51,768 nt of DNA from Lysobacterales bacterium (GTDB lineage Bacteria; Pseudomonadota; Gammaproteobacteria; Xanthomonadales; S139-57): assembly GCA_015485125.1 (NCBI GenBank), contig WFUE01000130.1:1-51768 (forward strand). The letters run 5' to 3'. This document shows, one piece after another, positions 10,188 to 25,576 of this stretch. Position numbers and translations under genes: made by a program. The notes beneath the pieces were generated by a model. The model did not search any database, was not told the origin of the DNA, and saw only the letters and a list, made by a program, of their open reading frames with translations. Each line of letters opens with the position of its first letter. The first letter of the stretch is position 1.

Positions 10188-10508
10188 TCAGTAGTCGAAT
10201 TCGGTCAGCTGCATCTCACCCTGCATGTCGATGGCCACCCGCTTGACGCCGGGCATGCGCGAGAGAATGTAGCCGGCCATCATCTGCTGCATGGGCGGGT
10301 CTTCATTTTCCAGCGCGGTGGCCAGCCGGTTGGCCACGTACTGGCAGCGTTGCAGGGTATCGGGCATGTCGATCCAGTAGCGCCCGGCCTGAATGCCCTG
10401 ATTCATGTCGGCATCCATCTGCGAGAACACATCACCGGCCCCCTGCACCACCTCATCCCGCACCTCGACGGGAATCACCTGTTCGCCTAAGATGACTTCT
10501 AGTTTCAT
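10188..10508 (-). CDS. Hypothetical acidic, Met-rich 106-aa protein
   Basis: This is the only ORF filling the 320-nt gap. I recognised no family. Confidence 0.45.
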   Translation of the reverse strand: MKLEVILGEQVIPVEVRDEVVQGAGDVFSQMDADMNQGIQAGRYWIDMPDTLQRCQYVANRLATALENEDPPMQQMMAGYILSRMPGVKRVAIDMQGEMQLTEFDY

Positions 10509-10525
10509 GGTTGAGGGTTCTCCTG

Positions 10526-11194
10526 ATGCAAATGGTGATTGAAGATGTATTGGGGCCAGAGCAACTGGCGCTGGCCCGGGAAATGCTGCAACGCGCGCCC
10601 TTTCAGGACGGCACGCTGACCGCCGGCGACTGGGCGGCCCGGGTAAAGCACAACCAGGAAGTGCCCACGGATGCCCAAATGGTACAGCAGTTGAACAACC
10701 TGATCATGAACCCGCTGGTGCGACATCCGCGCTTTCAGGCCGCCGTGCTGCCCCAGCGCATCGCCGCACCCATCTACGCCCGCTACGAAGCAGGCATGGA
10801 ATACGGCTTTCATGTGGACGACCCCATCATGGGCGGGCCACAAAAATACCGTACCGATATTTCCTTTACCCTGTTTCTCAGCGCGCCGGAAGAATATGAA
10901 GGTGGCGAACTGGAGATTGCCGGCGAGTTCGGCACCCTGCAACACAAGCTGCCGGCCGGGCACGCAGTCATCTACCCGTCCTCCAGCCTGCACCGGGTAC
11001 GGCCGGTGACCGCCGGCCAGCGGCTGGTGGCCATCAGCTGGATCCAGAGCCTGATTCGCGAACCGGCCCGGCGGCAGGTACTGTTCCAGATGAATCAGGC
11101 GCGGGAAAAACTGATGGCGCTGGAGGCCACTGACGAGGCCATGCAACTGGATACCGCCTACGCCAATCTGTTTCGCATGTGGGCCGAGCCCTGA
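10526..11194 (+). CDS. Fe(II)/2-oxoglutarate-dependent PKHD-type hydroxylase (PiuC/YbiX-like)
   Basis: It carries the HxD...H facial triad (FHVDDP ... SSSLHRV) and C-terminal WIQSLIR. I chose the start at ATG 10526, 8 nt after GAGGG. Confidence 0.8.
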   Translation: MQMVIEDVLGPEQLALAREMLQRAPFQDGTLTAGDWAARVKHNQEVPTDAQMVQQLNNLIMNPLVRHPRFQAAVLPQRIAAPIYARYEAGMEYGFHVDDPIMGGPQKYRTDISFTLFLSAPEEYEGGELEIAGEFGTLQHKLPAGHAVIYPSSSLHRVRPVTAGQRLVAISWIQSLIREPARRQVLFQMNQAREKLMALEATDEAMQLDTAYANLFRMWAEP

Positions 11195-11206
11195 GCGCCA
11201 GAAAAG

Positions 11207-11236
11207 AAAAAAGCCCGGCGATGCGGGCTTTTTTCA
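11207..11236. terminator. Bidirectional rho-independent terminator
   Basis: aaaaaagcccg-gcgatg-cgggctttttt is a GC stem flanked by an A-run and a T-run. It lies between the convergent genes ending at 11194 (+) and 11254 (-). Confidence 0.8.
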
Positions 11237-11253
11237 CGCGTTCCGTGGGCGGC

Positions 11254-11493
11254 TCAGCGCTGGGAACCGTGCTCCTCGTGGGCGATTTCCATCACTTTCA
11301 TCGCCAGGTCACGGTATTTTTCCGCATAGCCCTGCAGGGGGTGGCCGTCCTGTGCGGCATAGTACTCCACCGGCTGCACACCATTTTCGTGTTCATATTC
11401 CATGAACTTTTTCTGCATTGCCAGCATTTCCTGGATCATTTCTTGTTTCGTTGCCATGAGCTTTGATCTCCGGGTCATTGACGTTTTCGCCAT
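11254..11493 (-). CDS. Hypothetical small protein (67-79 aa)
   Basis: This ORF is the last gene before the terminator. An internal ATG at 11457 (MATKQEM) has a GGAG about 10 nt upstream and may be the true start. Confidence 0.45.
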   Translation of the reverse strand: MAKTSMTRRSKLMATKQEMIQEMLAMQKKFMEYEHENGVQPVEYYAAQDGHPLQGYAEKYRDLAMKVMEIAHEEHGSQR

Positions 11494-11575
11494 GGTAGTG
11501 CAGGGGCCGGAACCGCTCCATATCCCAATGGATAAAGAGACAGAAGCGCCTCTATTACTGTCGGTCAGGCAAGCA

Positions 11576-12244
11576 TCAGGTATTGATGGAAGCTATGCCC
11601 TTGTGGGGTACAAACACGCCCAGGCCCAGCTTCTGCCAGTCGCCCAGCCCGTGGGTCTGCACCCGGATGGATTCGTCCGGCTTGAGGTCGGCCAGCATCA
11701 ACCTGCGGGTGAAGATGGGCCCTGACGGCCCCTGCACGAATTCGGTCTTGCCGCACAGGGCCTTTTTCACCGGCACATCCATCTCCGCCAGCGCCGCGAC
11801 CATGCGCTGCAAAAACTGTTCTTCACTTTCCGCCTCCTCACCGGGCACATGGCGGGAAAACACCACCGCGTAAGGGTTGATCTCCCGCTCGTGCGCCTTG
11901 CCGATGCGCATTTCACGGCCGCCAATCTGCAACTGCTGACCGGCCAGCGCCTGCACATCATCCAGCCGTTCCCGGGGCACGCGCAATTCCAGGCGGGAGC
12001 GGCGCGAGAGCAGAATCTCACCCTGTTCCTCATCCGGGCGTTCCCAGCCATTCTGGCTGGCGGCACCATAGATCAGGTGCAGGGCGGCCTGCGGTTCCTG
12101 CTCGAACCAGGGCAGCGCCCGGCAGATTTCCGCCGAAAGCTCGGCGGCATGATCCAGGGGCACGGCCCGGCACTGCAACTGGAACAGTACATCCACCACC
12201 GGCGCCTGTTCCGCCTTCTTTTCTTCCTCTTCCTGCCAGAACAT
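11576..12244 (-). CDS. Solo Cas6/Cmx6-like RAMP protein (putative RNA-binding protein or endoribonuclease)
   Basis: The C-terminal glycine-rich loop GLGDWQKLGLGVFVPH fits the Cas6 GhGxxxxxGhG hallmark. The N-terminal VDVLFQLQCRAVPLDHA and the central RLELRVPRE...LAGQQLQIGG..MRIG match my recollection of the Cas6/Cmx6 (type I-MYXAN) consensus. I trimmed the start to MFWQ (ATG at 12244), 1 nt after the upstream stop. Confidence 0.6.
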   Translation of the reverse strand: MFWQEEEEKKAEQAPVVDVLFQLQCRAVPLDHAAELSAEICRALPWFEQEPQAALHLIYGAASQNGWERPDEEQGEILLSRRSRLELRVPRERLDDVQALAGQQLQIGGREMRIGKAHEREINPYAVVFSRHVPGEEAESEEQFLQRMVAALAEMDVPVKKALCGKTEFVQGPSGPIFTRRLMLADLKPDESIRVQTHGLGDWQKLGLGVFVPHKGIASINT

Positions 12245-12245
12245 G

Positions 12246-12449
12246 TCAGTCACCAAAACCGGGGATGAGATTAAAGGCGTTTTCCAGTTGCATTTCCCAG
12301 TTGTCCGGGGTGTCCTCGAAGGGTGGCTTCACATCCATTTGCAGTTGCATGGCACCTTCCTGCGCCTTCTGCCGGATCAGCTGCTGCAGGCCCTTGAAGG
12401 TTTCAATCTGTCGGTTCTGCATCAGCAATTCACTCAACCAGATGGTCAT
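12246..12449 (-). CDS. Hypothetical 67-aa Gln/Glu-rich protein
   Basis: The ATG at 12449 is preceded by GGAGAG with 5-nt spacing. Its stop lies 1 nt before the Cas6-like start. I recognised no family. Confidence 0.5.
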   Translation of the reverse strand: MTIWLSELLMQNRQIETFKGLQQLIRQKAQEGAMQLQMDVKPPFEDTPDNWEMQLENAFNLIPGFGD

Positions 12450-12504
12450 GGCGTTCTCTCCCGCACCCTTGCCGGGTGTCTGTGTTTTGCCTTGGCTGGA
12501 GGTT

Positions 12505-13386
12505 TCAGGCCGCTGCCGGTTGCGCGGGGTAGCGATCAAAGAACCGCGCCCGGTACATCAGCCGGCCGGCTTGCGGATCATCGCGAAAGCCCTTGCGGCC
12601 ATGCAGCACATTATTGCAGATCAGCCCTTCGCCGGCTTTCAGCCTGTAGTGATAGATGGGGATGGTTTCTCCCTGCAGCAAGTCCATCAGTGCCGCGCGC
12701 GCTGCGCGATGCAGGGGTTCGTCCTTCCAGATCACATTGTGCTTGCGGATGGTGAAGCGCATATGCAGCTGGCCGTGATCGTCCAGCGAGAATACAGGGC
12801 CACAGCGCGGTTCTTCTCCACCCTCTTCCCGATTGGGCGGGATGCAGAGCATGTCCGGCGCCATCAACGCGCGGATGTAGTCCGGGTTTTCATCCCGCAG
12901 ATGAATATAGAGCAGCTCCGGGTCCATGAGAAAATTTTCCCCGCCTTCCGCGGCCGGGCGCACACAGTGCAGCACCATGCCGCGAATCCACTCCTCCGGG
13001 CGGTTGTAATAACCGTCGGTATGCCAGTTGATGGGCTTGTCGGTGTAGGGAATGTAGCGTTCGCGCTTGCCACTGGGATCACAGCTCAAGGCGGTAATGC
13101 CGCTGGGGTCGCTGCACAGATGGTAATCCAGCCGGGTCAGGCCGAAGTGCGCGGCCAGCTGGCGAACCAGTGTCCGGTCTTCGCCATCGTCGTCCAGAAA
13201 ACGGTAGATGGCCATGTTGCAGCGTTGCAGCCGGTGGGCGATGGCCTCCAGCGCCGCCGGTTCCGGATTGGCCGCCTGCGGAATTTCCACCAGCAACGCG
13301 CTCGCGTCAGCCGGCACCTGTGCCAGCTTCCACGCCCGCCAGCGCCGGTAGTCGTCTTCGTGCGCCAGGGAAAAGGGTTGCGCCAT
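12505..13386 (-). CDS. TauD/TfdA-family Fe(II)/2-oxoglutarate dioxygenase
   Basis: WHTDGYY (HxD) and a distal NNVLHGRKGF (H..R) match the TauD/TfdA facial triad and 2OG-binding Arg pattern. The start codon overlaps the response-regulator stop (TGATG). Confidence 0.7.
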   Translation of the reverse strand: MAQPFSLAHEDDYRRWRAWKLAQVPADASALLVEIPQAANPEPAALEAIAHRLQRCNMAIYRFLDDDGEDRTLVRQLAAHFGLTRLDYHLCSDPSGITALSCDPSGKRERYIPYTDKPINWHTDGYYNRPEEWIRGMVLHCVRPAAEGGENFLMDPELLYIHLRDENPDYIRALMAPDMLCIPPNREEGGEEPRCGPVFSLDDHGQLHMRFTIRKHNVIWKDEPLHRAARAALMDLLQGETIPIYHYRLKAGEGLICNNVLHGRKGFRDDPQAGRLMYRARFFDRYPAQPAAA

Positions 13387-14054
13387 CAGCCTTCGTTGCG
13401 ATTGGCGCGCAGCCCCTGCTCGACGGCGATCACGGCCGCTTCCACCCGCGAGTGCACATCCAGCTTGCGCAGAATGGCTTTCACATGCAGCTTGACGGTA
13501 CCGTCGGAAATGCCCAGGTTGCGGGCAATGACCTTGTTGCTCTGCCCTTCAGCCAGCAGGGAGAGGATTTCCAGCTCTCGCGGGGTGAGGTTGGCAAAGG
13601 GGCTGGGGATGGGCGGAATGACGCCGTCGTCCTGCACCACCCGGGCCAGTACCGGGGCCAGATCGGGCGAGACTTCGGTCTTGCCCTGCATGATGTTGCG
13701 CAAGGCCGTGACCAGTGCGTCCGGGTCCATGTCCTTGAGCAGATAGCCTTGTGCGCCGGAGCGCAGGGATTCCACCAGATCCCGTTCGTCCGAGCTGGTG
13801 GTCAGCATCACCACCGGCATTTCCAGGCCCTGCTTGCGCAGCTCCCGCAGCACACTGATACCACTCATTTCCGGCATGCGCATGTCCAGCAGAATGATGT
13901 CCGGCTGGTGTTCCCTGGCCATCTTGATGCCTTCACGACCACCGCTCTGGGATTCCAGTACTTCGATGCCCCGTTGCTTGAGCAGTTTGGCCAACCCGAG
14001 TCGAAACAGGGTGTGGTCATCGATCATCAACACCTTCAGCTCACTCATATTCAC
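13386..14054 (-). CDS. NarL/FixJ (LuxR-type HTH) response regulator
   Basis: The receiver domain has VLMIDDH and IILLDMRMPEMSG (phospho-Asp). The C-terminal GerE/LuxR HTH reads LTPRELEILSLLAEGQSNKVIARNLGISDGTVKLHVKAILRKL. Confidence 0.9.
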   Translation of the reverse strand: MNMSELKVLMIDDHTLFRLGLAKLLKQRGIEVLESQSGGREGIKMAREHQPDIILLDMRMPEMSGISVLRELRKQGLEMPVVMLTTSSDERDLVESLRSGAQGYLLKDMDPDALVTALRNIMQGKTEVSPDLAPVLARVVQDDGVIPPIPSPFANLTPRELEILSLLAEGQSNKVIARNLGISDGTVKLHVKAILRKLDVHSRVEAAVIAVEQGLRANRNEG

Positions 14055-14072
14055 CTCTCTTGGTTTCCCGCG

Positions 14073-15404
14073 CTATATGGTTGTCTTTCGCCCGGCATCG
14101 GGGTCATTGTATTCGTCATGCTCGAAATCGAGAATAATCCGCGTACCTTCATCCGGCTCGCTTTCAATCCGTAGTGTACCACCCAGCTTGCTGGCGCGTT
14201 CCTGCATGATTTTCATGCCGAAATGCTCGGAGAAATCATCCATTTCCCGAAAACGTATGCCCACGCCATCGTCCTCGATCATCATGTGAATATGGCCGGC
14301 GGCATCGGAACGCATCAAAATGCGTACCATGTTGGCCTGCGCATGCTTGCGGATATTGCTCAGTGCTTCCTGGGCAATACGGTACATCTGGATTTCCTTC
14401 TCCCGGGGCAACAGCACCGGATGCCATTCCTTCTGCAGAAAAACCTGAATGCCGTTGATGGTGTGGAATCGATCCAGCAGCTCCTGAATGGCGGAAACGA
14501 TATTGCGTTTGTGGCTGGCGCCGCGAAAATGGGCGATCAGCTCGCGCAGTTCCTGGTTGGCGGTTTCAATGCTTTCCTCGATGCGCTCCATTTCCTGCCA
14601 GATGCCCGGCTCGTCTCCAATTTGCAGGGTCTGGTCCAGCACACGGATCTGAAAACGCAGGCTGGCGATGCTCTGGGCCAGTGAATCATGCAGCTCATGC
14701 GCCAGTTGCAGGCGTTCTTCCTGAATCACCTTCTGCATGCGGATGTCCATGATACGGGCGTTTTCCACCCCGATGGCCAGATGGCGGGTCACGCCTTCCA
14801 GCAAGTCATTCAGGTTGCGGTCTTCTTCCACCGAGCCCTTGAGCACGAACAGGTTGAACACACCCAAGGCCTTGCCCCGCACTTTCAGCGGGATGCACAT
14901 CATGCTGTAGTCCGCGCCACGGCTTTCGTTCAGAACCTGATCCAGCAGTTGCGCATCATCCACAATCTGGATTTTCTCCGAACGCAGGGCCGGGTCGGTC
15001 AGCGCCCGGCGCAGCGGTTCAGCCCGCTGGCCCATCAGTCTTTCCTCGCGGATGCCGGATGCGGCGGCCACACGCAGTTTTTCCTCGTGGTCCACCAGCC
15101 AGACCAGGCCGGCATCGGCCTGGGCCACGTTGCGCAGAATATGCAGGGAGCGCGTGAGCAAATCATCCAGATCACGAAAATCCATCGCCCGTGCCGCCAC
15201 TTCATAGCGGATATTCAGCGCATGGCCTTTCTTCAGCCGCTCCTGGGTATCCCGCATGCGGTCGGCAACGAGATTCATTTCTCCCGCGATGGGCTGCAAC
15301 AGCGGATCCCCAGTCAGCAGCGTGGCCGAGGCAAAGTCGTTGGCGGCCAGCTTTTCCAGCCAGCGCCGCATCATTTCCAGCTGTTGTTCGCAGGTTTCCG
15401 GCAT
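14073..15404 (-). CDS. Soluble GAF-domain sensor histidine kinase (HisKA_3/NarX-type)
   Basis: No TM segments are apparent. After a central GAF-like region come the H-box LAHELHDSLAQ, the N-box EALSNIRKHAQA, and the G-boxes DDGVGI and HFGMKIMQERA. Confidence 0.85.
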   Translation of the reverse strand: MPETCEQQLEMMRRWLEKLAANDFASATLLTGDPLLQPIAGEMNLVADRMRDTQERLKKGHALNIRYEVAARAMDFRDLDDLLTRSLHILRNVAQADAGLVWLVDHEEKLRVAAASGIREERLMGQRAEPLRRALTDPALRSEKIQIVDDAQLLDQVLNESRGADYSMMCIPLKVRGKALGVFNLFVLKGSVEEDRNLNDLLEGVTRHLAIGVENARIMDIRMQKVIQEERLQLAHELHDSLAQSIASLRFQIRVLDQTLQIGDEPGIWQEMERIEESIETANQELRELIAHFRGASHKRNIVSAIQELLDRFHTINGIQVFLQKEWHPVLLPREKEIQMYRIAQEALSNIRKHAQANMVRILMRSDAAGHIHMMIEDDGVGIRFREMDDFSEHFGMKIMQERASKLGGTLRIESEPDEGTRIILDFEHDEYNDPDAGRKTTI

Positions 15405-15410
15405 GGTCTG

Positions 15411-15731
15411 TTATTGCTCGGGTTTCACGGTACAGTTGGGGTCATTGGGATTGATGAAAACAAACTGCTTTTCATCGGAGCCTTCCAGTTCGACAAAATC
15501 CAGTACGGTTCCTTTCAGCAGGTCTTCACTGAAAGGAGAGATGACCACTTCCACCCCGTTGCTCTGGATGGTCTTGTCCTCTTCCGTAACATTGTCTTCG
15601 AAACCCATGGCATATTGAAAATTGCCCTGTTCGTCGCGCTTGACGGCGATGCGCAAGGGCATGCCCAATAAATTGCTCTCACGTGCCGCGGCCTGTATTT
15701 GCTCGGCGGCGGCCTTGCTGATTTCGATCAT
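15411..15731 (-). CDS. dsrR: DsrR (IscA/HesB-like protein lacking the three cluster cysteines)
   Basis: The protein shows the IscA-fold pattern (I.IS..AA..I, LRIAV...G..Y.M.F, and F.F.NPN) without the conserved Cys triad. It follows dsrN, and its start overlaps the dsrN stop (ATGA). Confidence 0.75.
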   Translation of the reverse strand: MIEISKAAAEQIQAAARESNLLGMPLRIAVKRDEQGNFQYAMGFEDNVTEEDKTIQSNGVEVVISPFSEDLLKGTVLDFVELEGSDEKQFVFINPNDPNCTVKPEQ

Positions 15732-17095
15732 CTGGTTTTCTCCCGTATAAATTGTACAAATGCGTCTACCCAGGGCGATGACTCAGTATGCCGCAAATGG
15801 GCATAGCCGGCGACGGTATTTTTGTACACCAGCCCGTCATGCACCCCATCCAGCCCCGTACCACGCCTTACTTGCCAGGCATAACGCTGGCCATTTTCCA
15901 CTGCCGGCAAGGGGCGCCAGGCGGAGTGATGAAATTCGTGCGCGTGCACGACTTCACTGCCTTGCCATGGCCATGGGTGATCTTGTGCCTGAATGCGCAT
16001 CAGCCCCCGACCCACCGGCCGGGCCTGCATTTCCACATCAAAGGGCAAGAATCCGGCCATGGGCCAGCGTTTGCCATCAACAACAATATGCTGGCCCAGA
16101 TACATCAAGCCACCGCATTCCGCGTAACAGGGCAACCCCTGCTGCAATGCGGCAAGGACGGCTTCTCGCATCCTGTGATTGGCACTGAGCGCCTCGGCCT
16201 TCATTTCAGGAAACCCACCGCCGATAAACAGCGCGTCCATTTCAGGCAAGGTGGTGTCATGAATGCTGTTGATGGAAACGATTTCCGCACCCAGTGTTTC
16301 AAACCGTTCCAGGTCATCGGGATAATAAAAGCCAAATGCCTGATCCTGAAATATTCCGAGACGAAAGGTTTGCTGCCTGGGTGCTGACGCCCCTTGTACT
16401 GGCGTTTCAAACGCATGCTGCGGTAATCGTTGCAGCCATGTATCCACATCCAGTTGTGTATCTAACTGAGTGGCCAGAAGCTGAAGGGTGTCTTCCGTGT
16501 TTTCCGCCTCATTGGCCGGTTGCAGCCCCAAATGCCGTTCCTGCACGGCCGCGTGCCTTTGACGTTCGATCACGCCCAGGATGGGCATGCTCGGATAACG
16601 CGCACAGACCTCCAGCAATCGCTGTCGATGACGGGGCCCGGCACATTGATTCAGCAATGCGCCCTGGAAGCGTAGCCCCGGTTCAAAAGTGGCATAGCCA
16701 TGCAACAAGGGGGCAATGCCACGGGTAAACCCGGTGACATCCACCACCAGCATCACGGGAATATCCAACAAACGAGCCAGGGCGGCATTGCTGTCCTTGC
16801 CGTCCACATCCTGACCATCAAACAGGCCGTGATTGCCCTCCACCAGCACGATATCGGCATCTGCGCTCTTGCGAAAAAACAGATCACGGATTTCGCTGGC
16901 GCTCTGGGTGTTGAAATCCAGATTGTAGGAAGGCCTGCCGCTGGCCTTGCGGTGCCAGATCGGATCGATATAGTCCGGCCCTTTCTTGAACATCTGCACG
17001 CGCAAGCCCCGATCTCGCAAGAGACGCGCCAAAGCCAGTGCAATCATGGTCTTGCCACTGGACTTGTGTGGTGCAGAGATCATCACGGCCTGCAT
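15728..17095 (-). CDS. dsrN: DsrN (cobyrinate a,c-diamide synthase-like siroheme amidase)
   Basis: N-terminal P-loop-like SAPHKSSGKT, a CobB/CbiA architecture with a C-terminal glutamine amidotransferase Cys (YAECGGLMYLG), and a position inside the dsr cluster. Confidence 0.85.
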   Translation of the reverse strand: MQAVMISAPHKSSGKTMIALALARLLRDRGLRVQMFKKGPDYIDPIWHRKASGRPSYNLDFNTQSASEIRDLFFRKSADADIVLVEGNHGLFDGQDVDGKDSNAALARLLDIPVMLVVDVTGFTRGIAPLLHGYATFEPGLRFQGALLNQCAGPRHRQRLLEVCARYPSMPILGVIERQRHAAVQERHLGLQPANEAENTEDTLQLLATQLDTQLDVDTWLQRLPQHAFETPVQGASAPRQQTFRLGIFQDQAFGFYYPDDLERFETLGAEIVSINSIHDTTLPEMDALFIGGGFPEMKAEALSANHRMREAVLAALQQGLPCYAECGGLMYLGQHIVVDGKRWPMAGFLPFDVEMQARPVGRGLMRIQAQDHPWPWQGSEVVHAHEFHHSAWRPLPAVENGQRYAWQVRRGTGLDGVHDGLVYKNTVAGYAHLRHTESSPWVDAFVQFIREKTR

Positions 17096-17195
17096 GGCTG
17101 CTCCCCAATGGGTTGGTCTAGCGAATCCAGCAACTGTTTCGCGGATCCTGTGGTTACGCCTGTTACATTAGCACTTTCTACACTATTGCTGTAAA

Positions 17196-17230
17196 GAAAA
17201 AAAAGGCCCGGCTATGCCAGGCCTTTTTCA
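17196..17230 (-). terminator. Strong rho-independent terminator between dsrP and dsrN
   Basis: The minus strand reads aaaaaGGCCTGGcatagCCGGGCCttttttttt: a 7-bp GC stem with one G-U pair, followed by a 9-T run, 13 nt after the dsrP stop. Confidence 0.75.
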
Positions 17231-17242: not shown

Positions 17243-18463
17243 TCAGTCCTTGCTGTGAGCCGGGTCCACTACCTGGTCACTGAGGCTGGAAGGCAGCAGC
17301 CGCAACACCCGCATGCCCACAAAAGTGGCCAGTATGGTCAAGGCAAAGCCCCCCAGACCCAGCAGAAACTCGGGCAGTGAAGGATGATATTCAGCCACCA
17401 CACCGTCATAGAAACTGCTGGAGACAATCTTGTCGGCAAAGAGTGGCATGGGATAGGCCTGCCCGGCAATGATGGTGACATACATCTGCGCCAGACCACC
17501 AATAATCACCAGCAGCGCACCCAGCAGGATCAGGTTGCGGTTCCTGCCCAGTGTGGGGTGGTAGAAGATGGCCAGCGGCAACAGGGTGCCCAGGCCAATC
17601 TGGCCGATCCAGAATACGGCTGTGTAGATACCGCCACTGGTCAGAATCCAGATTTCATAATCATGCGCCTTGGCCCAGTATAGATTGGTCAGGTGATGAA
17701 TGATGGTCATCAACAATACCGCTCCTACAAAGGTTCCCAGCAGGTTCTTCAGACGGAACAGGATTTTCTCCCCCAGTTCGCGACCATCGAAACGGCAGGC
17801 CAGCTTGAGCATGACCATCTTGAAGGCGAGACCATAGCTGAAGGACATGATGATGAACATCGGGGCCAGCAGAGCACTGGCATAGGCGGTACGCGCCACG
17901 ATAAAACCAAAGATGGAACCGGTACCCGTGGTCAGGATCAGTCGCCAGACAAAGGCGGCAAAACCGGCCTTGGGGTAGTGCTTGTACATCTTGTAGTCCA
18001 TCATGAACCACAGATAGATACCGGTGAAGAACAGGAAACCGTTATAGAGGATCATGTTCCAGGCGAAGATGGACCGGAAGTTGTACTTCGTGGCCGCCAC
18101 GATCAACCGATCCGGACGCCCCAGATCCAGTACCAGAATCATCAGGCCACCCACCAGCAGGGCCATGGCGATCCAGGCGGACAAGCGCCCCAGGGGTTTG
18201 TACTGGTACTTGTCAAATACCGTACCAATGGAAGCGATATTCAGGGCACCGGAGGCGGCCACGATGAGAAAGACGGCAAAAACATGTGGCAACCCCCAGA
18301 CAATCTGGTTGCTCATGCCGGTGACCCAGTGACCCTCGTGCTCCATGTAAAGCGCGGCCAGTAGGCCCGCACCCAGCACGGCCGCTACAATAGCCAGAAA
18401 AGTGAGTACGGACTTGTTCAGTTCGATTTCAAGATATTCGACGGGATTTTTCATCTGGCTCAC
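17243..18463 (-). CDS. dsrP: DsrP (NrfD/PsrC-like integral membrane quinone-interacting subunit)
   Basis: A 406-aa polytopic membrane protein with about 10 hydrophobic helices, lying immediately after dsrO. Confidence 0.85.
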   Translation of the reverse strand: MSQMKNPVEYLEIELNKSVLTFLAIVAAVLGAGLLAALYMEHEGHWVTGMSNQIVWGLPHVFAVFLIVAASGALNIASIGTVFDKYQYKPLGRLSAWIAMALLVGGLMILVLDLGRPDRLIVAATKYNFRSIFAWNMILYNGFLFFTGIYLWFMMDYKMYKHYPKAGFAAFVWRLILTTGTGSIFGFIVARTAYASALLAPMFIIMSFSYGLAFKMVMLKLACRFDGRELGEKILFRLKNLLGTFVGAVLLMTIIHHLTNLYWAKAHDYEIWILTSGGIYTAVFWIGQIGLGTLLPLAIFYHPTLGRNRNLILLGALLVIIGGLAQMYVTIIAGQAYPMPLFADKIVSSSFYDGVVAEYHPSLPEFLLGLGGFALTILATFVGMRVLRLLPSSLSDQVVDPAHSKD

Positions 18464-18468
18464 AATCC

Positions 18469-19230
18469 TCAGTTGATGCCCTGATAGCGCACACCGGTGT
18501 TCAGCCCGAGATCCTCGCGAATCTGCTGACCACCCTCACGCAACAGTGCCTGGGAAATCTCGCTCTCGGGATCGTTGAGATCACCAAATATCATTGCCTG
18601 GTGTCCTTCCAGCTTGCAGGCTTCCACACAAGCCGGAATGCCCCCCTTGTCCACGGTGTATACGCACATGTTGCAGGATTCCACCGTTCCCTTGCCCCGG
18701 GGCGTATGCGGCAGTGGATTTTCGGTTTCTTCATGCAGGAAACTCCGTGCCTTGTAGGGGCAGGCCATCATGCAATAGCGACAACCGATACACAGATGGC
18801 GGTCCACCAGTACGATGCCATCCTCGCGCCGGAAAGAAGCGCCTGTCGGGCAAACATCCGCACAAGGCGGGTGTTCGCAATGCTGGCACATGATGGGGAA
18901 GGAACTGACCTTGCGGGTCAGCGGATCTTCCACCTTGAGTTTGCGAATCCACTGCGGGTCCTTGTCAGGACGTCCATGGGTTTCGATGCCATGCTTGTTG
19001 TGGCATGCGGTAACACACGCGTCGCACTCTGTGGTGCATTTGCGCGTATCAATGAGGATGCCCCAGCGATTCTTGTCGGATATTCGCTGATCATCCGGCT
19101 TGGCCTTGACTTCATGCAGCACCAGACCGGGAAGAATGGTCATGGAGGCGATCACGCTGACCGAGCCGCCCAGAAAAGACCGGCGCTCCGGTTGTGCGGG
19201 CTGGTTACAATCGCAGGATTTGCAACTCAT
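18469..19230 (-). CDS. dsrO: DsrO (Tat-exported 4x[4Fe-4S] ferredoxin-like subunit)
   Basis: Twin-arginine signal ERRSFLGGS and multiple CxxCxxCxxxCP-type clusters (CQHCEHPPCADVCP, CIGCRYCMMACP). The start overlaps the dsrJ stop. Confidence 0.9.
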   Translation of the reverse strand: MSCKSCDCNQPAQPERRSFLGGSVSVIASMTILPGLVLHEVKAKPDDQRISDKNRWGILIDTRKCTTECDACVTACHNKHGIETHGRPDKDPQWIRKLKVEDPLTRKVSSFPIMCQHCEHPPCADVCPTGASFRREDGIVLVDRHLCIGCRYCMMACPYKARSFLHEETENPLPHTPRGKGTVESCNMCVYTVDKGGIPACVEACKLEGHQAMIFGDLNDPESEISQALLREGGQQIREDLGLNTGVRYQGIN

Positions 19231-19670
19231 TGGCGAGCCTCCATCAAGGTATTGCGAATGGTGTCTTCCGAAAGCCCTTGCCGCAGCATCACAGGATGGC
19301 GAGCCTGTTCATAGGCCTCCTCCGGTTTATCGGCATGGCATTGGAAACAGTCAATCTTCACGGCTGCATAGGTGTGACAGGAATTACAGAAGTGTTTTTC
19401 CGTTTTCACGGAAACCCACTCACCCTTCTCGTCCTTGGTAGCATGGCAGTTGATGCATTCCACCAGGCTGAACTGCGGGTTGCGATAGCCCTCGTGCACG
19501 GTTTCGTCCCGCTGGTGCAGGATGTATTTCATATGATTTTTCCGCATTTCATCCGTGGGTCGCACGCAGGATTCACCCTTGCGTGCTTCCGGAATCTGCG
19601 GCAATACACCTGACCAGGCTGCCAAGGGCAGCAACAGGCCAATCAGCAATGCAATCAGCCCTTGTCGCAT
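19227..19670 (-). CDS. dsrJ: DsrJ (periplasmic triheme cytochrome c)
   Basis: Three CxxCH motifs (CINCH, CNSCH, CFQCH) follow the signal/anchor MRQGLIALLIGLLLPLAAWSG. I trimmed the start to the ATG at 19670, 1 nt after the dsrL stop. Confidence 0.9.
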   Translation of the reverse strand: MRQGLIALLIGLLLPLAAWSGVLPQIPEARKGESCVRPTDEMRKNHMKYILHQRDETVHEGYRNPQFSLVECINCHATKDEKGEWVSVKTEKHFCNSCHTYAAVKIDCFQCHADKPEEAYEQARHPVMLRQGLSEDTIRNTLMEARQ

Positions 19671-19671
19671 C

Positions 19672-21612
19672 TTAGTGATCTCCCATGCCCATGTCGATGT
19701 AGCCGGTGGGGCAGACATCCGCACAGATGTGACAACCAATACAACGTGTATAGTCGGTAGCCACGTAACGGCCCGTAGTGGACTCGTTTTTGGGCACGCG
19801 GTAGACCGCATCCTGCGGGCAGTAGATCACGCAGTTGTCACACTCGAAGCACAGACCACAGCTCATGCAACGCTCGGCCTCGGCCACGGCCTTTTCTTCT
19901 TCCAGACCCTTGACCCGCTCCTCGAAATGACCCAGTACATGGTCGGAATCCGGCACATCGGTCTCGCGCAGGTTGCGTGGCTCTTCCGGGAAGTGACCCA
20001 GGAACAGGTGGTCGGCAGAAATGATTTCCGCTTCCGAACGGTCGTCGAAATTGTGGATGGCGAACTTCTGTTCGGAAGTGCCCCATACATAATCCGGCTG
20101 ATAATCATCCGGATCCAAACCGGCTTCGTGCAGCTTCTCCATCAGGTTGAAGTGGTGTACATCCACCTTCGGGCGCTTGTGGAATTCCTTGCCGTTAAGG
20201 AATTCATCCACGGTATCCGCCACCACGGAACCCTGACCAATGGCCGTGGTCAGCAGGTGCGGACGCACGATGTCACCGGCCACGAAGTGCTTGGCACGCC
20301 CGGGCACGCAGTAGAACTTGTCGGCGTCCATCAGGCCTCGACCATTGTCAAAGTCTTCCAGGCCCTTGAGGTCACCGGTCTGGCCAATGGCCGCCACGAT
20401 CACATCGCACTCGATTTCAAACTCGGTACCTTCGCGGGCCACCGGGCGACCATCGACCATGTCACACTCGGCCATCTTCAGGGCCACGGCACGACCTTCG
20501 TCATTGAGGATGACTTCCAGCGGCATCACGCTGCACTTGATGTCCACCCCTTCGCGCAGTGCATCTTCCACTTCCTCTTCGGAAGCGGTCATCTCGTCCT
20601 GCGGGAACAGGGAGGTCAGGGTGACGGTCGCCGGACGACGGTCCAGGCCATCCTCATGCACGGCCTTGCCGGCAATCACATCTTCCATGGGCGCCGCACC
20701 ATCGGCGGTGCCCAGGCGACGGGAAACGGACACCACGTCGATGGAGGTATCACCACCACCCACGCAAACCACTTTCTCGGGCACATATTTCAGCTTGCCC
20801 TGGTTGAAGCGTTCCAGCATGCCCACACCGGTCACGCAGTTGGGCGTGCCTTCCCAGCCGGGTACCGGCAGGCCGCGACCCGTCCAGCAGCCGATGGCCC
20901 AGATAATGGCATCGTAGTCTTTTTCCAGCTCCTCGACGCTGACATCCTCGCCCACGCGCACACCGGTACGCACTTCGATGTCACCCATGTCGAGAATCCG
21001 CTGGATTTCATGATCCAGCACATCCCGTGGTGTCCGATAGCCGGGGATACCGTAACGCATCATGCCACCCAGCTCTTCCTGGGCGTCAAAGATGGTGGAG
21101 GCATGGCCTTTCTTGCGCAGCTGGTAGGCTGCGGACATGCCAGCCGGGCCGCCACCGATAATGGCCACTTTCTTTCCGGACAATGCCGCCGGTGCCTGGA
21201 ACTTGTAGCCTTTTTCGAAGGCGGTATCACCGATGAACTGTTCCACGGAATTGATGCCGACGAAGTCATCCACCACATTGCGGTTACAACCTTCCTGACA
21301 GGGTGCCGGGCAGACACGACCCATCATGGAGGGGAAGGGGTTGGCCGTGGTGGAGCGCAAGAAGGCATATTCGTGCTTGTCCACGTCAGCAGGCGGCTTC
21401 TCGATGCCACGGACGATCTGCAACCAGCCACGAATGTCCTCGCCGGAAGGACAACTGCCCTGACAAGGCGGGGTACGGTGCACATATGTCGGGCACTTGT
21501 GCGATGTATCCTGGACAAAGATCTTCTTGGTCAGATCATTCCACTCGTGTTCGCCATCCTCAAATCTTCTAAAGGTATGGCTTTTCTTCATGTCTTCAGC
21601 TGAGGTAGACAT
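19672..21612 (-). CDS. dsrL: DsrL (NAD(P)H-dependent iron-sulfur flavoprotein, GltD-like)
   Basis: N-terminal Fe-S Cys motifs, the dinucleotide fold VAIIGGGPAGMSAAY, a second Rossmann fold VVCVGGGDTSID, and a C-terminal 2x[4Fe-4S] ferredoxin domain (CMSCGLCFECDNCVIYCP, CIGCHICADVCP). Confidence 0.9.
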   Translation of the reverse strand: MSTSAEDMKKSHTFRRFEDGEHEWNDLTKKIFVQDTSHKCPTYVHRTPPCQGSCPSGEDIRGWLQIVRGIEKPPADVDKHEYAFLRSTTANPFPSMMGRVCPAPCQEGCNRNVVDDFVGINSVEQFIGDTAFEKGYKFQAPAALSGKKVAIIGGGPAGMSAAYQLRKKGHASTIFDAQEELGGMMRYGIPGYRTPRDVLDHEIQRILDMGDIEVRTGVRVGEDVSVEELEKDYDAIIWAIGCWTGRGLPVPGWEGTPNCVTGVGMLERFNQGKLKYVPEKVVCVGGGDTSIDVVSVSRRLGTADGAAPMEDVIAGKAVHEDGLDRRPATVTLTSLFPQDEMTASEEEVEDALREGVDIKCSVMPLEVILNDEGRAVALKMAECDMVDGRPVAREGTEFEIECDVIVAAIGQTGDLKGLEDFDNGRGLMDADKFYCVPGRAKHFVAGDIVRPHLLTTAIGQGSVVADTVDEFLNGKEFHKRPKVDVHHFNLMEKLHEAGLDPDDYQPDYVWGTSEQKFAIHNFDDRSEAEIISADHLFLGHFPEEPRNLRETDVPDSDHVLGHFEERVKGLEEEKAVAEAERCMSCGLCFECDNCVIYCPQDAVYRVPKNESTTGRYVATDYTRCIGCHICADVCPTGYIDMGMGDH

Positions 21613-21656
21613 CGCGCCTCTCCTAATTCAATTAAATTTCACCGAACCAGTACGAT

Positions 21657-23147
21657 TTATTCGTGCTGGTCAAAAACCAGAGCATCCCCAACCAGTTGGT
21701 GCAGGCTCAGAATGCTGTCCATCTCGAATCCGTAATACGGCATGACCTTGGTGAACTGGCTCTTGCAGATCGCGCAGATGGCCACCAGGTGATCCACGCC
21801 GTAGTTGTCATGCACATGCTTGAGTGCCTCCATCCGCGGCAGGGCACCCTTGACCCGCAGTTCCATCAGGTCATCGGTCAGCAGGCCGCCGCCACCGCCG
21901 CAACAGAAGGTGCTTTCGCAAATGGTTTCCCGCGGCATGTCGTGGTAGTTGTTGACCACCGACTTGAGAATGGCCCGAGGAATCTTGAACTGGCCACCCG
22001 GCTCGTTGCCCATGCGTGAGCCCCGTGCCACATTGCAGGAATCATGGAAGGTCACATTGAGATGATCATTGGCGGAAGGATCCAGCTTCAATTGCCCTTT
22101 CTGAATGGCATCCCAGGTCACTTCACAAATGTGCTGCGGCACCGGGTAATTGGGGTCGAGAAAATCAAAGGGCCCCGCCAGGGTATTGAGGAAGCTGTAG
22201 GCCACCCGCCAGGCATGGCCACACTCGCCGAACACGATACGCTTGACACCCAATTCCAGTGCCGCCTTGCGGATGCGCAGGGCCAGGCGTTGCATGTTCT
22301 CGTAACTGCCGATGAACATGCCGAAGTTGGCCGCCTCGCTGGCGAAGGAACTCATGGTCCAGCTGATGCCCAGCTGGTGGAAGACCTTGCCATAACCAAT
22401 CAGGCCGTCGATATGCGGCTCGGCAAAGAAGTCGGCGGACGGGGTGATCAACAATACATCAGCGCCCTTCTCATCCAGCGGATAGCGCACGGGCACGCCG
22501 ATATCCTCTTCGACCTCCTCTTCCAGATCCAGCAGCGTATCCTTCAGCGCTGGCTGAGGCAGACCCAGGTTGTTACCCAGCGTCTGCGCCTTGTGGATGA
22601 TCTCGTTGCAGTACTTCTGCCCCACGCCGACAGAGTCCAGAATCTCCCGGGCAGCCATGGAAATCTCTGCGGTATCGATACCATAAGGGCAAAATACAGA
22701 GCAGCGACGACACTGGGAGCATTGGTGGAAATAGCTGTACCACTCGTCCAGCACTTCCTTGTTCAGATCCACCGCGCCAACCAGTTTCGGGAAATACTTG
22801 CCGGCAAAAGTAAAGTAGCGACGATAGACCTTGCGCAGCAGATCCTGACGGGCCACCGGCATGTTTTTCGGGTCCGCCGTGCCCAGGAAGTAATGACACT
22901 TGTCGGTACAGGCACCGCATTTCACACAGGCATCGAGAAAGACCTGGAAGCTGCGATACTTGCCCAGCAGATCGCCCATCTTGTCCAGCGCGGCCTGCTC
23001 CCAGTTTTCCACCAGCTCGCCGGGGTAGCCCAGCGGTTGCTGCCATTGTTCCTTGGAAACAAACGGTTGGCTGTGCGCCATCGCCCCTTCCTGAAGTTCG
23101 GGGATTTCGATATGTTCCTTCAGCTCGGGTACTTCAAAATCTGCCAC
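21657..23147 (-). CDS. dsrK: DsrK (HdrD-like CCG-domain iron-sulfur catalytic subunit)
   Basis: Ferredoxin-like CVKCGACTDKC and CSQCRRCSVFCP, plus CCG-domain signatures (FCCGGGGG, CAICKSQ). Confidence 0.9.
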   Translation of the reverse strand: MADFEVPELKEHIEIPELQEGAMAHSQPFVSKEQWQQPLGYPGELVENWEQAALDKMGDLLGKYRSFQVFLDACVKCGACTDKCHYFLGTADPKNMPVARQDLLRKVYRRYFTFAGKYFPKLVGAVDLNKEVLDEWYSYFHQCSQCRRCSVFCPYGIDTAEISMAAREILDSVGVGQKYCNEIIHKAQTLGNNLGLPQPALKDTLLDLEEEVEEDIGVPVRYPLDEKGADVLLITPSADFFAEPHIDGLIGYGKVFHQLGISWTMSSFASEAANFGMFIGSYENMQRLALRIRKAALELGVKRIVFGECGHAWRVAYSFLNTLAGPFDFLDPNYPVPQHICEVTWDAIQKGQLKLDPSANDHLNVTFHDSCNVARGSRMGNEPGGQFKIPRAILKSVVNNYHDMPRETICESTFCCGGGGGLLTDDLMELRVKGALPRMEALKHVHDNYGVDHLVAICAICKSQFTKVMPYYGFEMDSILSLHQLVGDALVFDQHE

Positions 23148-23173
23148 GATACATCTCCAAAATCAGGTCAGGG

Positions 23174-23920
23174 TCAGGATGACTTGGTGGGTTCGTTGGG
23201 CAATTCAGCCGCCCATGGGGACAAATGGCGCTTTTCACGCGGGTTGTCCACCTGATTGCGGGTCGGACTGAAGAACACCCCTGGCGCATGCAACAGCTTG
23301 CTGATGGGAAATACCATCATCAACAGCGATACCATGGTGATGTGCGCGATCAGTATGGGATCAGCCGGGAATGGTTGAAAATCGAGACGCATCAGGCCCA
23401 TGAAAAAGGCCTTCACCGCGACGATATCAGTATGAGAAACAAAACTCATGCCAATGCCCGTCAAGGTGATACCCAACAGCAGCGCCAGCATCAGATGATC
23501 ACTGGGTGCTGAAATGTAGCGAATGCGCTCAACAAAAATCCGGCGTGCCCACAGGCCAAGCAGACCAATCAGCATGGCAAAGGCACCGTAACGGCCAAAG
23601 GGCTGAATGATCTCCACCCACCACCAGACCGGATCGGTGAAATAGCGCAGATGGCGGGCCAGCACGACAAACAGCGCCATGTGAAACATCCAGCCAAAGA
23701 TCCAGATCCACTTGTTGGACTTGAACAGACTGTTGAACAGAACCACTTCAGAGGCCATTCGCAATACCACGCCACCCTGGGTCACCGGTGCCGGTGTGGT
23801 GGGGATCTTCAACGGGGCTGGTGTCTTCGCATAGGTATAGATCTTTCTGCCCAATCCCACCAGCAAGATGGCGCTGGCCGAATAGAACATGACAGTCATA
23901 ATGACAGTCAGGATACTCAT
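23174..23920 (-). CDS. dsrM: DsrM (NarI-like dihaem cytochrome b membrane subunit)
   Basis: Five hydrophobic helices with conserved His residues. I trimmed the start to MSILTVIMTV (ATG at 23920, preceded by AGAGGA); the tracked ORF runs antisense-free back into dsrC. Confidence 0.85.
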   Translation of the reverse strand: MSILTVIMTVMFYSASAILLVGLGRKIYTYAKTPAPLKIPTTPAPVTQGGVVLRMASEVVLFNSLFKSNKWIWIFGWMFHMALFVVLARHLRYFTDPVWWWVEIIQPFGRYGAFAMLIGLLGLWARRIFVERIRYISAPSDHLMLALLLGITLTGIGMSFVSHTDIVAVKAFFMGLMRLDFQPFPADPILIAHITMVSLLMMVFPISKLLHAPGVFFSPTRNQVDNPREKRHLSPWAAELPNEPTKSS

Positions 23921-23953
23921 ACAAACATCCTCTGAAATCGTTCGATAAACACT

Positions 23954-23981
23954 TCGGGCCCGACCCGGTGGCCGGGCCCGA
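23954..23981 (-). other. Intercistronic stem-loop just downstream of dsrC
   Basis: A 9-bp perfect GC stem, TCGGGCCCG/CGGGCCCGA, with a 10-nt loop lies 6 nt after the dsrC stop. There is no long U-tract. Confidence 0.55.
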
Positions 23982-23987
23982 CAGTTA

Positions 23988-24320
23988 TTACACGCAGCCG
24001 GTCGGCTTGGGCAGACCCGCGTACTTACAAGCCTGCTTGGCAGGACCATACGGGAACAGCTGGTACAGGTACTTGCTGTTACCCTTGTCCTTGCCCAGCT
24101 TCTTGCCAATGGCCTTGGTCAGCACGCGCACGGCGGGAGCAATCTGATACTCCTCGTAGTATTCACGCAGGAAGTTGATCACTTCCCAGTGCGCGTCGGT
24201 CAGTTCGCAATCATCCGCGGCGGCCATGGCGGCACCCACTTCCGGAGTCCAGTCGTTCAGGTTGGCCAGGTAGCCTTCTTCATCAGTTTCGTAGGTTTTG
24301 CCGTTTACTTCGATGCTCAT
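23988..24320 (-). CDS. dsrC: DsrC (sulfur-carrier/substrate protein of DsrAB)
   Basis: A 110-aa TusE/DsrC-fold protein ending in the diagnostic two-cysteine arm CKYAGLPKPTGCV. Confidence 0.95.
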   Translation of the reverse strand: MSIEVNGKTYETDEEGYLANLNDWTPEVGAAMAAADDCELTDAHWEVINFLREYYEEYQIAPAVRVLTKAIGKKLGKDKGNSKYLYQLFPYGPAKQACKYAGLPKPTGCV

Positions 24321-24367
24321 GGTATTTCTCCTCGATAGATGCGTCGCATCCAGTTAAACATTCACGC

Positions 24368-24676
24368 TTACAGCCAGGCGTTGACCTGGTCATACTGCGT
24401 GGTCAAATCAACGAAGCCGTCAAAATCCACCGATTCGACGCCTTCTATCAGAGCCTGGTCTGCCAGGCCTCTTGCCTTGAGGTCCGGCTCCAGTACAAAC
24501 ACCTTCCGGTCTGCCAGGGCAGCCTTGACCAGATCGGCCTTGGCACCACCGGCCAGCGCGGCGTAGACGCCGTCTTCGATCAGCAGAATGGCTGCACCGG
24601 CATCACTGCGTTGCACGCAGGATTCCAGCGACGCCTTCTCGTAAGGTGATTTGTTGACAGTATGCAAAATGGCCAT
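24368..24676 (-). CDS. dsrH: DsrH (sulfur relay protein)
   Basis: A 102-aa DsrH/TusB-like protein (MAILHTVNKSP ... GVYAAL), placed after dsrF. Confidence 0.85.
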   Translation of the reverse strand: MAILHTVNKSPYEKASLESCVQRSDAGAAILLIEDGVYAALAGGAKADLVKAALADRKVFVLEPDLKARGLADQALIEGVESVDFDGFVDLTTQYDQVNAWL

Positions 24677-24689
24677 GTTCTTGTTCTCC

Positions 24690-25106: not shown

Positions 25107-25135
25107 GGATCGTTCTCCCAATCAAAAAACGTGGC

Positions 25136-25528: not shown

Positions 25529-25551
25529 GAACCAGTTTTCCTCGTCAAAGT

Positions 25552-25576
25552 CGGCAGCAGGGGTTGCCTGCTGCCG
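25552..25576 (-). other. Intercistronic stem-loop between dsrB and dsrE
   Basis: A perfect 10-bp stem, CGGCAGCAGG/CCTGCTGCCG, with a 5-nt loop lies 6 nt after the dsrB stop. The dsrE RBS (GAGGAAA) follows it on the minus strand. Confidence 0.6.

Follow-up and report, generated by a model that had tools for sequence, protein, structure and literature searches.

The DNA that follows dsrN and dsrR in a Lysobacterales bacterium (GenBank assembly GCA_015485125.1, contig WFUE01000130.1) raises the question of why a histidine kinase, a response regulator, a TauD-like dioxygenase, two small proteins and a protein of the Cas6 family, here called Cas6L, should be encoded in series at the end of a reverse-dsr cluster. 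We analysed a stretch of 51,768 nucleotides of this contig, which we call the window and to which all coordinates without a locus prefix refer. Reverse-Dsr sulfur oxidation is central to the sulfur cycle, and the control of dsr expression is partly understood: experiments on DsrC, DsrR and DsrS (Alvin_1265) of Allochromatium vinosum point to regulation, by a mechanism that is not established. A preliminary description of the locus had regarded these genes as a cassette of unknown function that would fill the place of dsrS, is probably co-expressed with dsrN and dsrR and may be an accessory system linked to sulfur oxidation.

The cassette does not represent an isolated insertion where dsrS would lie; it unites two gene sets, each of them found conserved beside dsr elsewhere. 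We consider it very probable that positions 10188-17229 represent a lineage-specific fusion of these two sets, which accompany reverse-dsr clusters in Gammaproteobacteria. The gene set, which is widely conserved, is now delimited beside dsr together with a candidate operator and a candidate two-component system.

Two dsr-linked gene sets at the end of the cluster

The first set consists of the histidine kinase (HK, minus strand, 14073-15404) and the response regulator (RR, minus strand, 13386-14054), which elsewhere follow dsrN-dsrR and are themselves followed by a rhodanese gene. The second set is usually found upstream of dsrA on the opposite strand, in the order dsrQ (the TauD-family dioxygenase gene), s67 (encoding a 67-residue protein), an optional gene for a 240-residue protein (p245), Cas6L, a gene for a cysteine-less DsrC paralogue and, optionally, s79 (encoding the second small protein), followed by a convergent gene for a PKHD-type hydroxylase and by orf106. 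In the window lineage the second set has moved behind the first, into the usual place of the rhodanese gene, and the 240-residue protein, the DsrC paralogue and the membrane-anchoring N-terminus of the kinase have been lost. The joining of the two sets is confined to this lineage.

The order dsrR-HK-RR-TauD-s67-Cas6L-s79 recurred in three related assemblies (GCA_054032355.1, GCA_054046825.1 and GCA_054026375.1) and in one Logan contig, each of the four being followed by the convergent PKHD gene and the two of sufficient length by orf106 as well. A fifth assembly, a contig of a 'Lysobacterales' metagenome-assembled genome (L006), starts within s67 and reads s67-Cas6L-s79-PKHD-orf106. Across these five, the identity of Cas6L to the window copy ranges from 92% down to 53%, and the ratios of non-synonymous to synonymous substitution rates (dN/dS) lay at 0.00-0.26 for all genes tested, indicating purifying selection. 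The adjacency to dsrNR is therefore not unique to the window genome, and the proposal of a dsr-linked accessory system, as opposed to a chance neighbourhood, is borne out by the recurrent order and by the selection on its genes.

The wider comparison rests on a metagenome scan with a Cas6L alignment, which returned 546 relatives (80 loci plus others were analysed, 90 of them non-redundant), and on a scan of a genome collection with a single sequence, which gave 7 loci; counts written as fractions refer to the loci that were long enough to judge. Kinase homologues of about 40% identity stood directly after dsrN-dsrR in 4/4 distant genomes sampled, and all four continue from dsrNR-HK-RR into a rhodanese gene. 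The dsr-linked pair has the same placement in the window and in the four related assemblies that carry the kinase, and the window regulator shares 66-67% identity with those encoded after dsrNR-HK in two of the distant genomes (L098 and L099). The rhodanese genes encode 154-155 residues (L098:10426-10890, L099:10343-10807, L100:8379-8846 and L101:8276-8740). The kinase was absent from all 80 metagenome loci gathered via Cas6L. Divergently oriented dsrA lay upstream of Cas6L in 28/38 loci, and wherever the source of a Cas6L homologue was named it was a sulfur oxidizer (Thiorhodovibrio, Thiohalocapsa, Thiohalophilus, Parabeggiatoa, Thiothrix or Thiolinea). The expectation that kinase, regulator, dioxygenase, small protein and Cas6-like protein would travel as a single set thus failed: the HK-RR pair goes with dsrN-dsrR, and the TauD-small-Cas6-like-small series goes with the dsrA promoter region.

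The association of the second set with dsr has exceptions. In six loci of Parabeggiatoa and other Thiotrichaceae, which are large sulfur bacteria (L007-L010, L013 and L014), neither a TauD gene nor dsrA lies within 10 kb of s67-Cas6L, and the core pair is thus not always linked to dsr.

The kinds of component involved are already known, namely Cas6, TauD-like dsrQ and NarL-type two-component systems, and the earlier label of unknown function needs qualifying in that the TauD-like gene had been named dsrQ (PMC7596348) and a Cas6-related protein had been annotated beside dsrA of A. vinosum. The module around an orphan Cas6, its p245 and s79 forms, the HK-RR pair at the 3' end of the cluster and the dsr operator appear to be undescribed in the searchable literature; our searches for Cas6/Cmx6 together with DsrC, TauD, dsrAB or sulfur, and for dsrR or dsrN together with a kinase-regulator pair, found nothing relevant.

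The sensor pair

The window kinase retains a partial HAMP remnant followed by GAF, HisKA_3 and HATPase_c domains, and is soluble, with no hydrophobic stretch visible in its sequence. It aligns only from about residue 96 of orthologues of 540-570 residues that bear HAMP, so the membrane-proximal N-terminus has been lost. The regulator is of the NarL/LuxR type, with REC and GerE domains, and likely starts at the ATG at 14048 to give 220 residues. Both are under strong constraint (dN/dS 0.07-0.10 for HK and 0.03-0.10 for RR).

Gene series and transcription unit

The open reading frame listing and profile searches confirmed the gene order and domains first reported from dsrN to the last small reading frame. 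The series opens with dsrN (minus strand, 15728-17095), a siroheme amidase homologue of the CobB type with GATase_3 and CbiA domains (NF002204, 401.6 bits), which overlaps by 4 nt the IscA-like dsrR (minus strand, 15411-15731; PF01521, 1.2e-11). The seven gaps from dsrN to the last reading frame came out at -4, 6, 18, -1, 55, 1 and 82 nt, identical to the values given before; most junctions from dsrN to Cas6L overlap or are shorter than 25 nt. The last gene, s79, was a real gene whose extent had been overestimated: in the open reading frame at 11254-11493 (minus strand), the gene itself covers 11254-11457 and encodes 67 residues, not 79, from an ATG at 11457 that has GGAG 10 nt upstream and agrees with the gene calls of five relatives and with the family alignment. 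With this start, the gap between Cas6L and s79 is 118 nt.

Both terminators of the preliminary description were recovered, and none was found between them on the minus strand. The intrinsic terminator after dsrP (minus strand, 17199-17229), the upstream boundary of the unit, has a 14-bp stem with 7 G-C pairs and a T-run, and neither stem nor T-tract varies among 3 related assemblies. The second, a hairpin with a 12-bp stem between the convergent s79 and PKHD genes (11206-11235), was detected on the minus strand; A- and T-runs flank its G+C core on both sides, and we infer that it acts on both strands. It had been read as the end of the unit, but the conserved gene set continues through 10188-11194. 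There, the PKHD/YbiX-type Fe(II)/2-oxoglutarate hydroxylase gene (plus strand, 10511-11194) is divergent from orf106 (minus strand, 10188-10508), which encodes 106 residues without a Pfam or NCBIfam match. In other loci the PKHD gene, again convergent, is no more than 7 kb away on the downstream side of Cas6L (24/44) and orf106 adjoins it (17/44), so that the conserved set runs past the end point given before.

Directly after the dsrP terminator we predicted an extended -10 element (TGcTAATGT, TGCTAATGT; minus strand, 17165-17173) for dsrN onward, which is conserved in relatives and preceded by a TTTACA hexamer resembling a -35 element at 17195-17190. The surrounding block GTAGAAA(A/G)TGCTAA(T/A)GTA is nearly invariant across 4 assemblies, and its flanks diverge. 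A promoter just after the dsrP terminator would thus drive dsrN onward, and a single transcription unit from dsrN to Cas6L is plausible because the terminator and the extended -10 element are conserved and the gene junctions are tight. Co-expression of the cassette with dsrN-dsrR is accordingly plausible as far as Cas6L, but s79 has a predicted promoter of its own.

A Cas6-family protein outside a CRISPR context

Cas6L (minus strand, 11576-12244; 222 residues) scored 196.6 bits against PF09559 (5e-58; cutoff 26.7) and 130 bits against TIGR02807 (cutoff 98.85). Its AlphaFold2 model (pLDDT 87.9, pTM 0.84) found as best Foldseek match the Cas6 of a Cascade complex from a type I-B CRISPR-associated transposon (CAST; 8fcu_B, E = 9e-17, TM 0.77-0.80), with further Cas6 and Cas6e structures ranking next, and a profile search of PDB sequences reached 6.9e-24 to 8fcj_B. 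A C-terminal glycine-rich loop, GLGxxxxxGxGxFxPHKGI, is invariant; in Cas6 and RAMP proteins the corresponding loop is an RNA-contacting element. Of 28 invariant columns in 35 sequences, six hold H32, H56, R69, R82, R88 and R180, and the two histidines are candidate catalytic residues. The family also has a conserved N-terminus, MFWQED, and an inserted loop, AGSQNGWERP.

The genomic context is of another kind. No tandem repeat or CRISPR array was found in the window, and the Cas6-like gene is therefore solo there; nor did the window hold any Rfam match at gathering thresholds. A k-mer array search detected no CRISPR array near Cas6L in 98 loci (970 kb); two array-like signals in these loci proved to be a perfect 55-bp tandem repeat (L010:1-275) and a small dispersed repeat. 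Among the genes listed for the window and for 10 loci with precomputed Pfam annotation there was no further cas gene (cas3, cas5, cas7, cas8, cas1 or cas2), and the neighbours of Cas6L in the inspected loci were dsr, TauD, DsrC, oxygenase and housekeeping genes.

By sequence and fold Cas6L belongs to the Cas6 family, and by context it is not a component of a CRISPR-Cas system. That it is decaying, left over from a type I CRISPR-Cas locus that has been lost and that lay near dsr by chance, is hardly credible: the protein does exceed the curated cutoff for type I-MYXAN Cas6/Cmx6, and annotation pipelines name it accordingly, but a dN/dS of about 0.17 and the invariant columns are not those of a decaying gene, the 546 relatives include 90 non-redundant loci with a conserved non-CRISPR neighbourhood, and neither arrays nor other cas genes lie nearby. 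Applied to the Cas6L clade, the name 'type I-MYXAN CRISPR-associated protein Cas6/Cmx6' that the pipelines assign is misleading.

Small proteins and the DsrC paralogue

The tightest partner of Cas6L is s67 (minus strand, 12246-12449), located directly upstream of it in 70/79 loci. It encodes an acidic protein with the motif MDVKPPFxDTPxxWExxLExAF that is conserved as a family (68 small-protein clusters among 1.84 billion representatives). It gave no Pfam, NCBIfam or fold match (single-sequence model pLDDT 78.7; best Foldseek E = 4.5), and a word-indexed homologue search returned only s67 itself. The second small protein, s79, with the motif MxxKQEMIxxMLxMQKKF...AHxEKGSxR, is encoded downstream of Cas6L in 22/53 loci (for example L070:2875-3078). 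The low dN/dS of s67 (0.00-0.05) and s79 (0.02-0.12) indicates that both small reading frames are real genes.

In 18/49 loci the gene for p245, of about 240 residues and with no Pfam or PDB relative, stands between s67 and Cas6L (for example L002:9192-9929). The proteins p245 and s79 exclude each other: 19 loci have only p245, 19 only s79, 6 neither and none both (Fisher p = 1.6e-7). Since they are mutually exclusive and show no detectable homology (hhalign probability 0.1%), they suggest two alternative forms of the module. A relationship of p245 to Cse2 was also discarded, because 1/14 members matched at E = 0.08, which we treated as chance.

Downstream of Cas6L, 49/63 loci encode a DsrC paralogue that lacks both C-terminal cysteines and ends in AGLPxxxRKGGY (for example L002:10863-11201 and L003:10775-11113); no such gene is present in the window. 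The Gly-Gly near its C-terminus resembles that of sulfur-carrier proteins. DsrC paralogues without both C-terminal cysteines form a family described in PMC8477390.

The two oxygenases

The product of dsrQ (minus strand, 12505-13386), whose start overlaps the RR stop, belongs to the TauD family (PF02668, 8e-18, 65.7 bits). Its metal triad H122-x-D124...H262 and R275 are conserved (40 homologues), its dN/dS is 0.13-0.19, and a TauD homologue is found upstream of Cas6L in 36/49 loci. The nearest relatives are TmpA and gamma-butyrobetaine hydroxylase of the TauD/TfdA superfamily, and it falls far below every characterised equivalog cutoff (best TmpA, 45.2 bits against 400), with a PDB match to 6npb of only 1e-05. 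The PKHD/YbiX hydroxylase exceeds its cutoff clearly (NF003974, 247.5 bits against 143) and conserves H101-x-D103...H161 and R171.

These enzymes could suggest a catabolic cassette in which dsrQ, and perhaps the PKHD hydroxylase, free sulfite from sulfonates to feed Dsr, the two-component system induces the genes, and Cas6L and the small proteins are passengers. That dsrQ releases sulfite from sulfonates has been speculated in print (PMC7596348, after Lenk et al. 2012), the intact H-x-D...H triad agrees with it, and by annotation alone the anaerobic phototroph A. vinosum has no TauD-like gene beside Alvin_1248, its Cas6-related gene. Yet the nearest characterised enzymes do not include taurine dioxygenase, the conserved set holds no transporter or sulfonate-pathway gene, the linkage of s67 to Cas6L is tighter than that of dsrQ, and dsrQ is present in the anaerobic phototroph Thiorhodovibrio. 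We therefore judge a catabolic role very unlikely.

A putative operator at the dsrA and s79 promoters

Upstream of dsrA we found a palindromic element, TATCCCTATCGAGATA (minus strand, 28167-28182), followed by CCCCCATCGTGTGATTTT and a -10 element TAGACT at 28111-28106. The 16-bp palindrome, TATCCC-N4-GGGATA, is matched at 10/12 positions or better in 44/49 dsrA upstream regions. The promoter layout in these 44/49 loci, from the window and from loci in the series L002-L091, is as follows: palindrome, about 20 nt, CCCCAnnGGTAGGAT, a -10 element resembling TAGAAT or TAGACT, and a 5' untranslated region of about 110-220 nt. The site at 28167-28182 was the only strong weight-matrix match in the window (22 bits). 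Across 954 kb of loci, 24 sites matched at 11/12 and 16 at 12/12, where about 2 and 0.06, respectively, would be predicted from a uniform base model.

We considered whether the palindrome forms an RNA hairpin or a substrate of Cas6L and rejected this, as 1/31 deviations was compensated and pairing equalled the shuffled expectation. The half-sites vary independently, which points to a site in DNA that a protein binds, not to a stem in RNA. Candidate binders are the NarL-type regulator and proteins of the DsrC family; DsrC is said, in work of Grimm and colleagues from 2010, to bind the dsr promoter region.

A related operator-like element, TATCCATTGGGATA (minus strand, 11521-11534), precedes s79, with a predicted -10 element TACCAT at 11497-11492 that lies 20 nt from GGGATATGG. 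The element matches TATCCNNNNGGATA exactly, the chance expectation at one mismatch or fewer being 0.45, and it would assign s79 and dsrA to one putative regulon. The arrangement of CCATTnGGGATAT, 20-22 nt and a -10 element resembling TATAGT precedes s79 in most loci that carry this gene and is conserved in close relatives. Given this promoter-like element in the gap after Cas6L, s79 is probably not expressed by read-through only and probably combines read-through with its own promoter. Two candidate RNA structures in the unit did not hold: folds in the Cas6L-s79 gap were heterogeneous, with no common structure that would make a conserved hairpin, and conservation of a hairpin between TauD and s67 is precluded by the overlap of the two genes in L096.

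A probable core set in Allochromatium vinosum

In A. vinosum, a gene annotated as 'CRISPR-associated protein, Cas6-related' (Alvin_1248) and two hypothetical genes (Alvin_1249 and Alvin_1250) abut dsrA (Alvin_1251) in the gene tables of PMC11267869. Their position and annotation fit the form s67-240-residue protein-Cas6L seen, for example, in L002; the annotation shows no TauD, PKHD or two-component genes next to them, and a literature search with the three locus tags found no paper. Table S2 of the same source, in the elemental-sulfur column taken from Weissgerber et al. 2013, gives 12.5, 6.3 and 17.7 for Alvin_1248-1250 and 0.13-0.29 for dsrA-P. In the same table, the DsrC-family paralogue Alvin_1508 is down about 7-fold on pyrite together with the dsr genes. 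The transcripts of dsrEFH and dsrC exceed that of dsrA (PMC3397948), and the dsr genes have been described as transcribed as one element (PMC3368242); such an excess within a single element would be compatible with RNA processing.

A possible role in the control of dsr expression

The role of the Cas6 gene set is probably regulatory. We propose, as a possibility somewhat short of probable, that it regulates dsr expression at the RNA level, independently of CRISPR, and takes oxygen and redox inputs. In this proposal, dsrN through Cas6L would be transcribed from the promoter after the dsrP terminator, and s79 from its own promoter with an operator-like element related to that of dsrA. The cytoplasmic kinase would sense an intracellular redox or sulfur signal via its GAF domain and phosphorylate the regulator, so that the pair would supply transcriptional control, with RR as a candidate binder of TATCCC-N4-GGGATA. 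Cas6L, taken over from CRISPR, and the translationally coupled s67 would tune expression post-transcriptionally by binding or cleaving a specific RNA, for which a dsr transcript is the most plausible candidate, while the two Fe(II)/2-oxoglutarate oxygenases might give an oxygen-dependent input, possibly by hydroxylating a protein of the module. An action of Cas6L and s67 on RNA is suggested because the RNA-binding hallmarks are kept, dsrEFH and dsrC exceed dsrA within a single element, and the A. vinosum genes are regulated in the opposite direction to dsrA-P. Taken as a whole, the fusion description together with this RNA-regulator mechanism seems to us evenly poised between right and wrong.

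Several points weigh against the proposal. Co-transcription and both promoters are predictions. The HK-RR pair has been demonstrated in a minority of the genomes that bear the operator, and RR is a candidate binder. The identification of Alvin_1248-1250 as the module core, which we consider probable, is based on annotation and position and not on sequence; the opposite regulation on elemental sulfur is used here for its sign only. In the pyrite experiment tabulated in PMC11267869, Alvin_1248-1250 were unchanged and dsrA was down 26-fold. In A. vinosum, ruvB follows dsrS, and no two-component system adjoins there. No RNA target of Cas6L was found, the sole conserved palindrome behaving as a DNA site, and the Cas6L family is acidic, with a median isoelectric point of 5.8, which is unusual in an RNA-binding protein.

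The last two points favour the main rival, in which Cas6L and s67, with the 240-residue protein or s79, would assist sulfur trafficking or the maturation of DsrAB or DsrC, as a protein scaffold or chaperone that does not handle RNA, the cysteine-less DsrC paralogue being a client or partner and the oxygenases modifying a protein or cofactor. The acidity extends to s67 and the 240-residue protein (isoelectric points 4.6 and 4.5), the DsrC paralogue with its AGLPxxxRKGGY end follows Cas6L in most loci, and both the AGSQNGWERP insert and the MFWQED N-terminus are absent from CRISPR Cas6. This account is nevertheless unlikely: the glycine-rich loop is strictly conserved, several invariant arginines and histidines are kept, and Cas6L and s67 are still under purifying selection in the window lineage, which has no DsrC paralogue.

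Returning to the RNA-level proposal, its most specific form is that co-opted Cas6 endoribonucleases, a partner of 60-67 residues and either the 240-residue protein or a second 67-residue protein constitute a CRISPR-independent RNA-processing switch for the reverse-dsr operon, gated by two oxygen-dependent hydroxylases and wired to the operator and the two-component system. We regard this form as doubtful. If true, it would add a new post-transcriptional control layer to a major biogeochemical pathway in hundreds of sulfur oxidizers and would give a clear and abundant example of a Cas6 put to a use other than defence. The apparent presence of the core set, by annotation and position, in the genetically tractable A. 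vinosum makes it experimentally addressable.

The remaining dsr cluster and neighbouring genes

The rest of the dsr cluster lies upstream of dsrN, at 17243-27988. Profiles verified dsrA, dsrB, dsrH, dsrC and a DsrM-like reading frame; DsrE (25136-25528) was assigned by position, homologues of that reading frame recurring there in other loci, and we infer the other dsr genes from precomputed Pfam hits on L001, which is from the same scaffold as the window. The G+C content is 60-63% in the cassette, 55-57% in the dsr genes and 64% in flanking housekeeping DNA, and given the latter value the composition of the cassette is uninformative about transfer.

Divergent from dsrA, the window has a CitMHS/TrkA_C transporter instead of the dsrQ module: 28488-30581 holds an 83-residue reading frame (28488-28739), for which no relatives were found in the fetched loci, and a 611-residue permease of the CitMHS/TrkA_C/Na_sulph_symp type that could transport anions, perhaps sulfate. 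Farther away, an 868-residue reading frame (39561-42167) with amino-acid kinase, ACT and Orn/DAP decarboxylase domains looks like an aspartokinase fused to a diaminopimelate decarboxylase. At 47528-50939 an AAA_5 (MoxR/CbbQ-like) ATPase gene adjoins one for a DUF2201 putative metallopeptidase; a similar pair, judged by eye, lies a few kb from the module in another locus (L062:17967-20256). The precomputed annotation of L001 also contains a HEPN/nucleotidyltransferase pair resembling a toxin-antitoxin system (L001:19876-20666, about 1579-2369 of the window).

Comparison with known systems

Cas6L shares with the type I-B/'I-MYXAN' Cascade Cas6 (8FCJ/8FCU chain B) its Pfam and NCBIfam family, the Cas6 fold of two ferredoxin-like domains and the C-terminal glycine-rich loop. 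In contrast to the CAST Cas6, it has neither an array nor other cas genes nearby, its isoelectric point is acidic, H32 replaces an Asn, and it is in fixed partnership with s67 and dsr genes; the MFWQED N-terminus and AGSQNGWERP insert likewise set it apart from CRISPR Cas6.

The sensor pair resembles NarX/NarL-type systems in combining a HisKA_3 and HATPase_c kinase with a REC and GerE regulator, here with GAF as the sensor module. It differs in scoring well under the cutoffs for NarX, NarQ and NarL (HK against NarQ, 161 bits versus 553; RR against NarL, 220.7 versus 250), in lacking the N-terminal membrane or periplasmic sensor part of NarX/NarQ and in being tied to dsrNR and not to nitrate genes. 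DosS/DosT with DosR, which are soluble GAF kinases and their regulator, offer a further comparison. The DsrC paralogue of the module lacks both C-terminal cysteines, as does the published RspA, to which it is likened by description only, and its AGLPxxxRKGGY terminus is distinctive.

Finally, a tauD-like gene near dsr, located upstream of dsrA in the opposite direction, received the name dsrQ from Lenk et al. in 2012, according to PMC7596348. In the accessible literature, descriptions cover dsrQ alone, without s67, Cas6L, the DsrC paralogue, s79 or the PKHD gene, and orthology to the sequences of Lenk et al. is putative. The gene studied here agrees with them in being a TauD-family gene tied to a reverse-dsr cluster and, in most relatives, divergent from dsrA, whereas the window copy is translationally coupled to RR at the cluster's 3' end.

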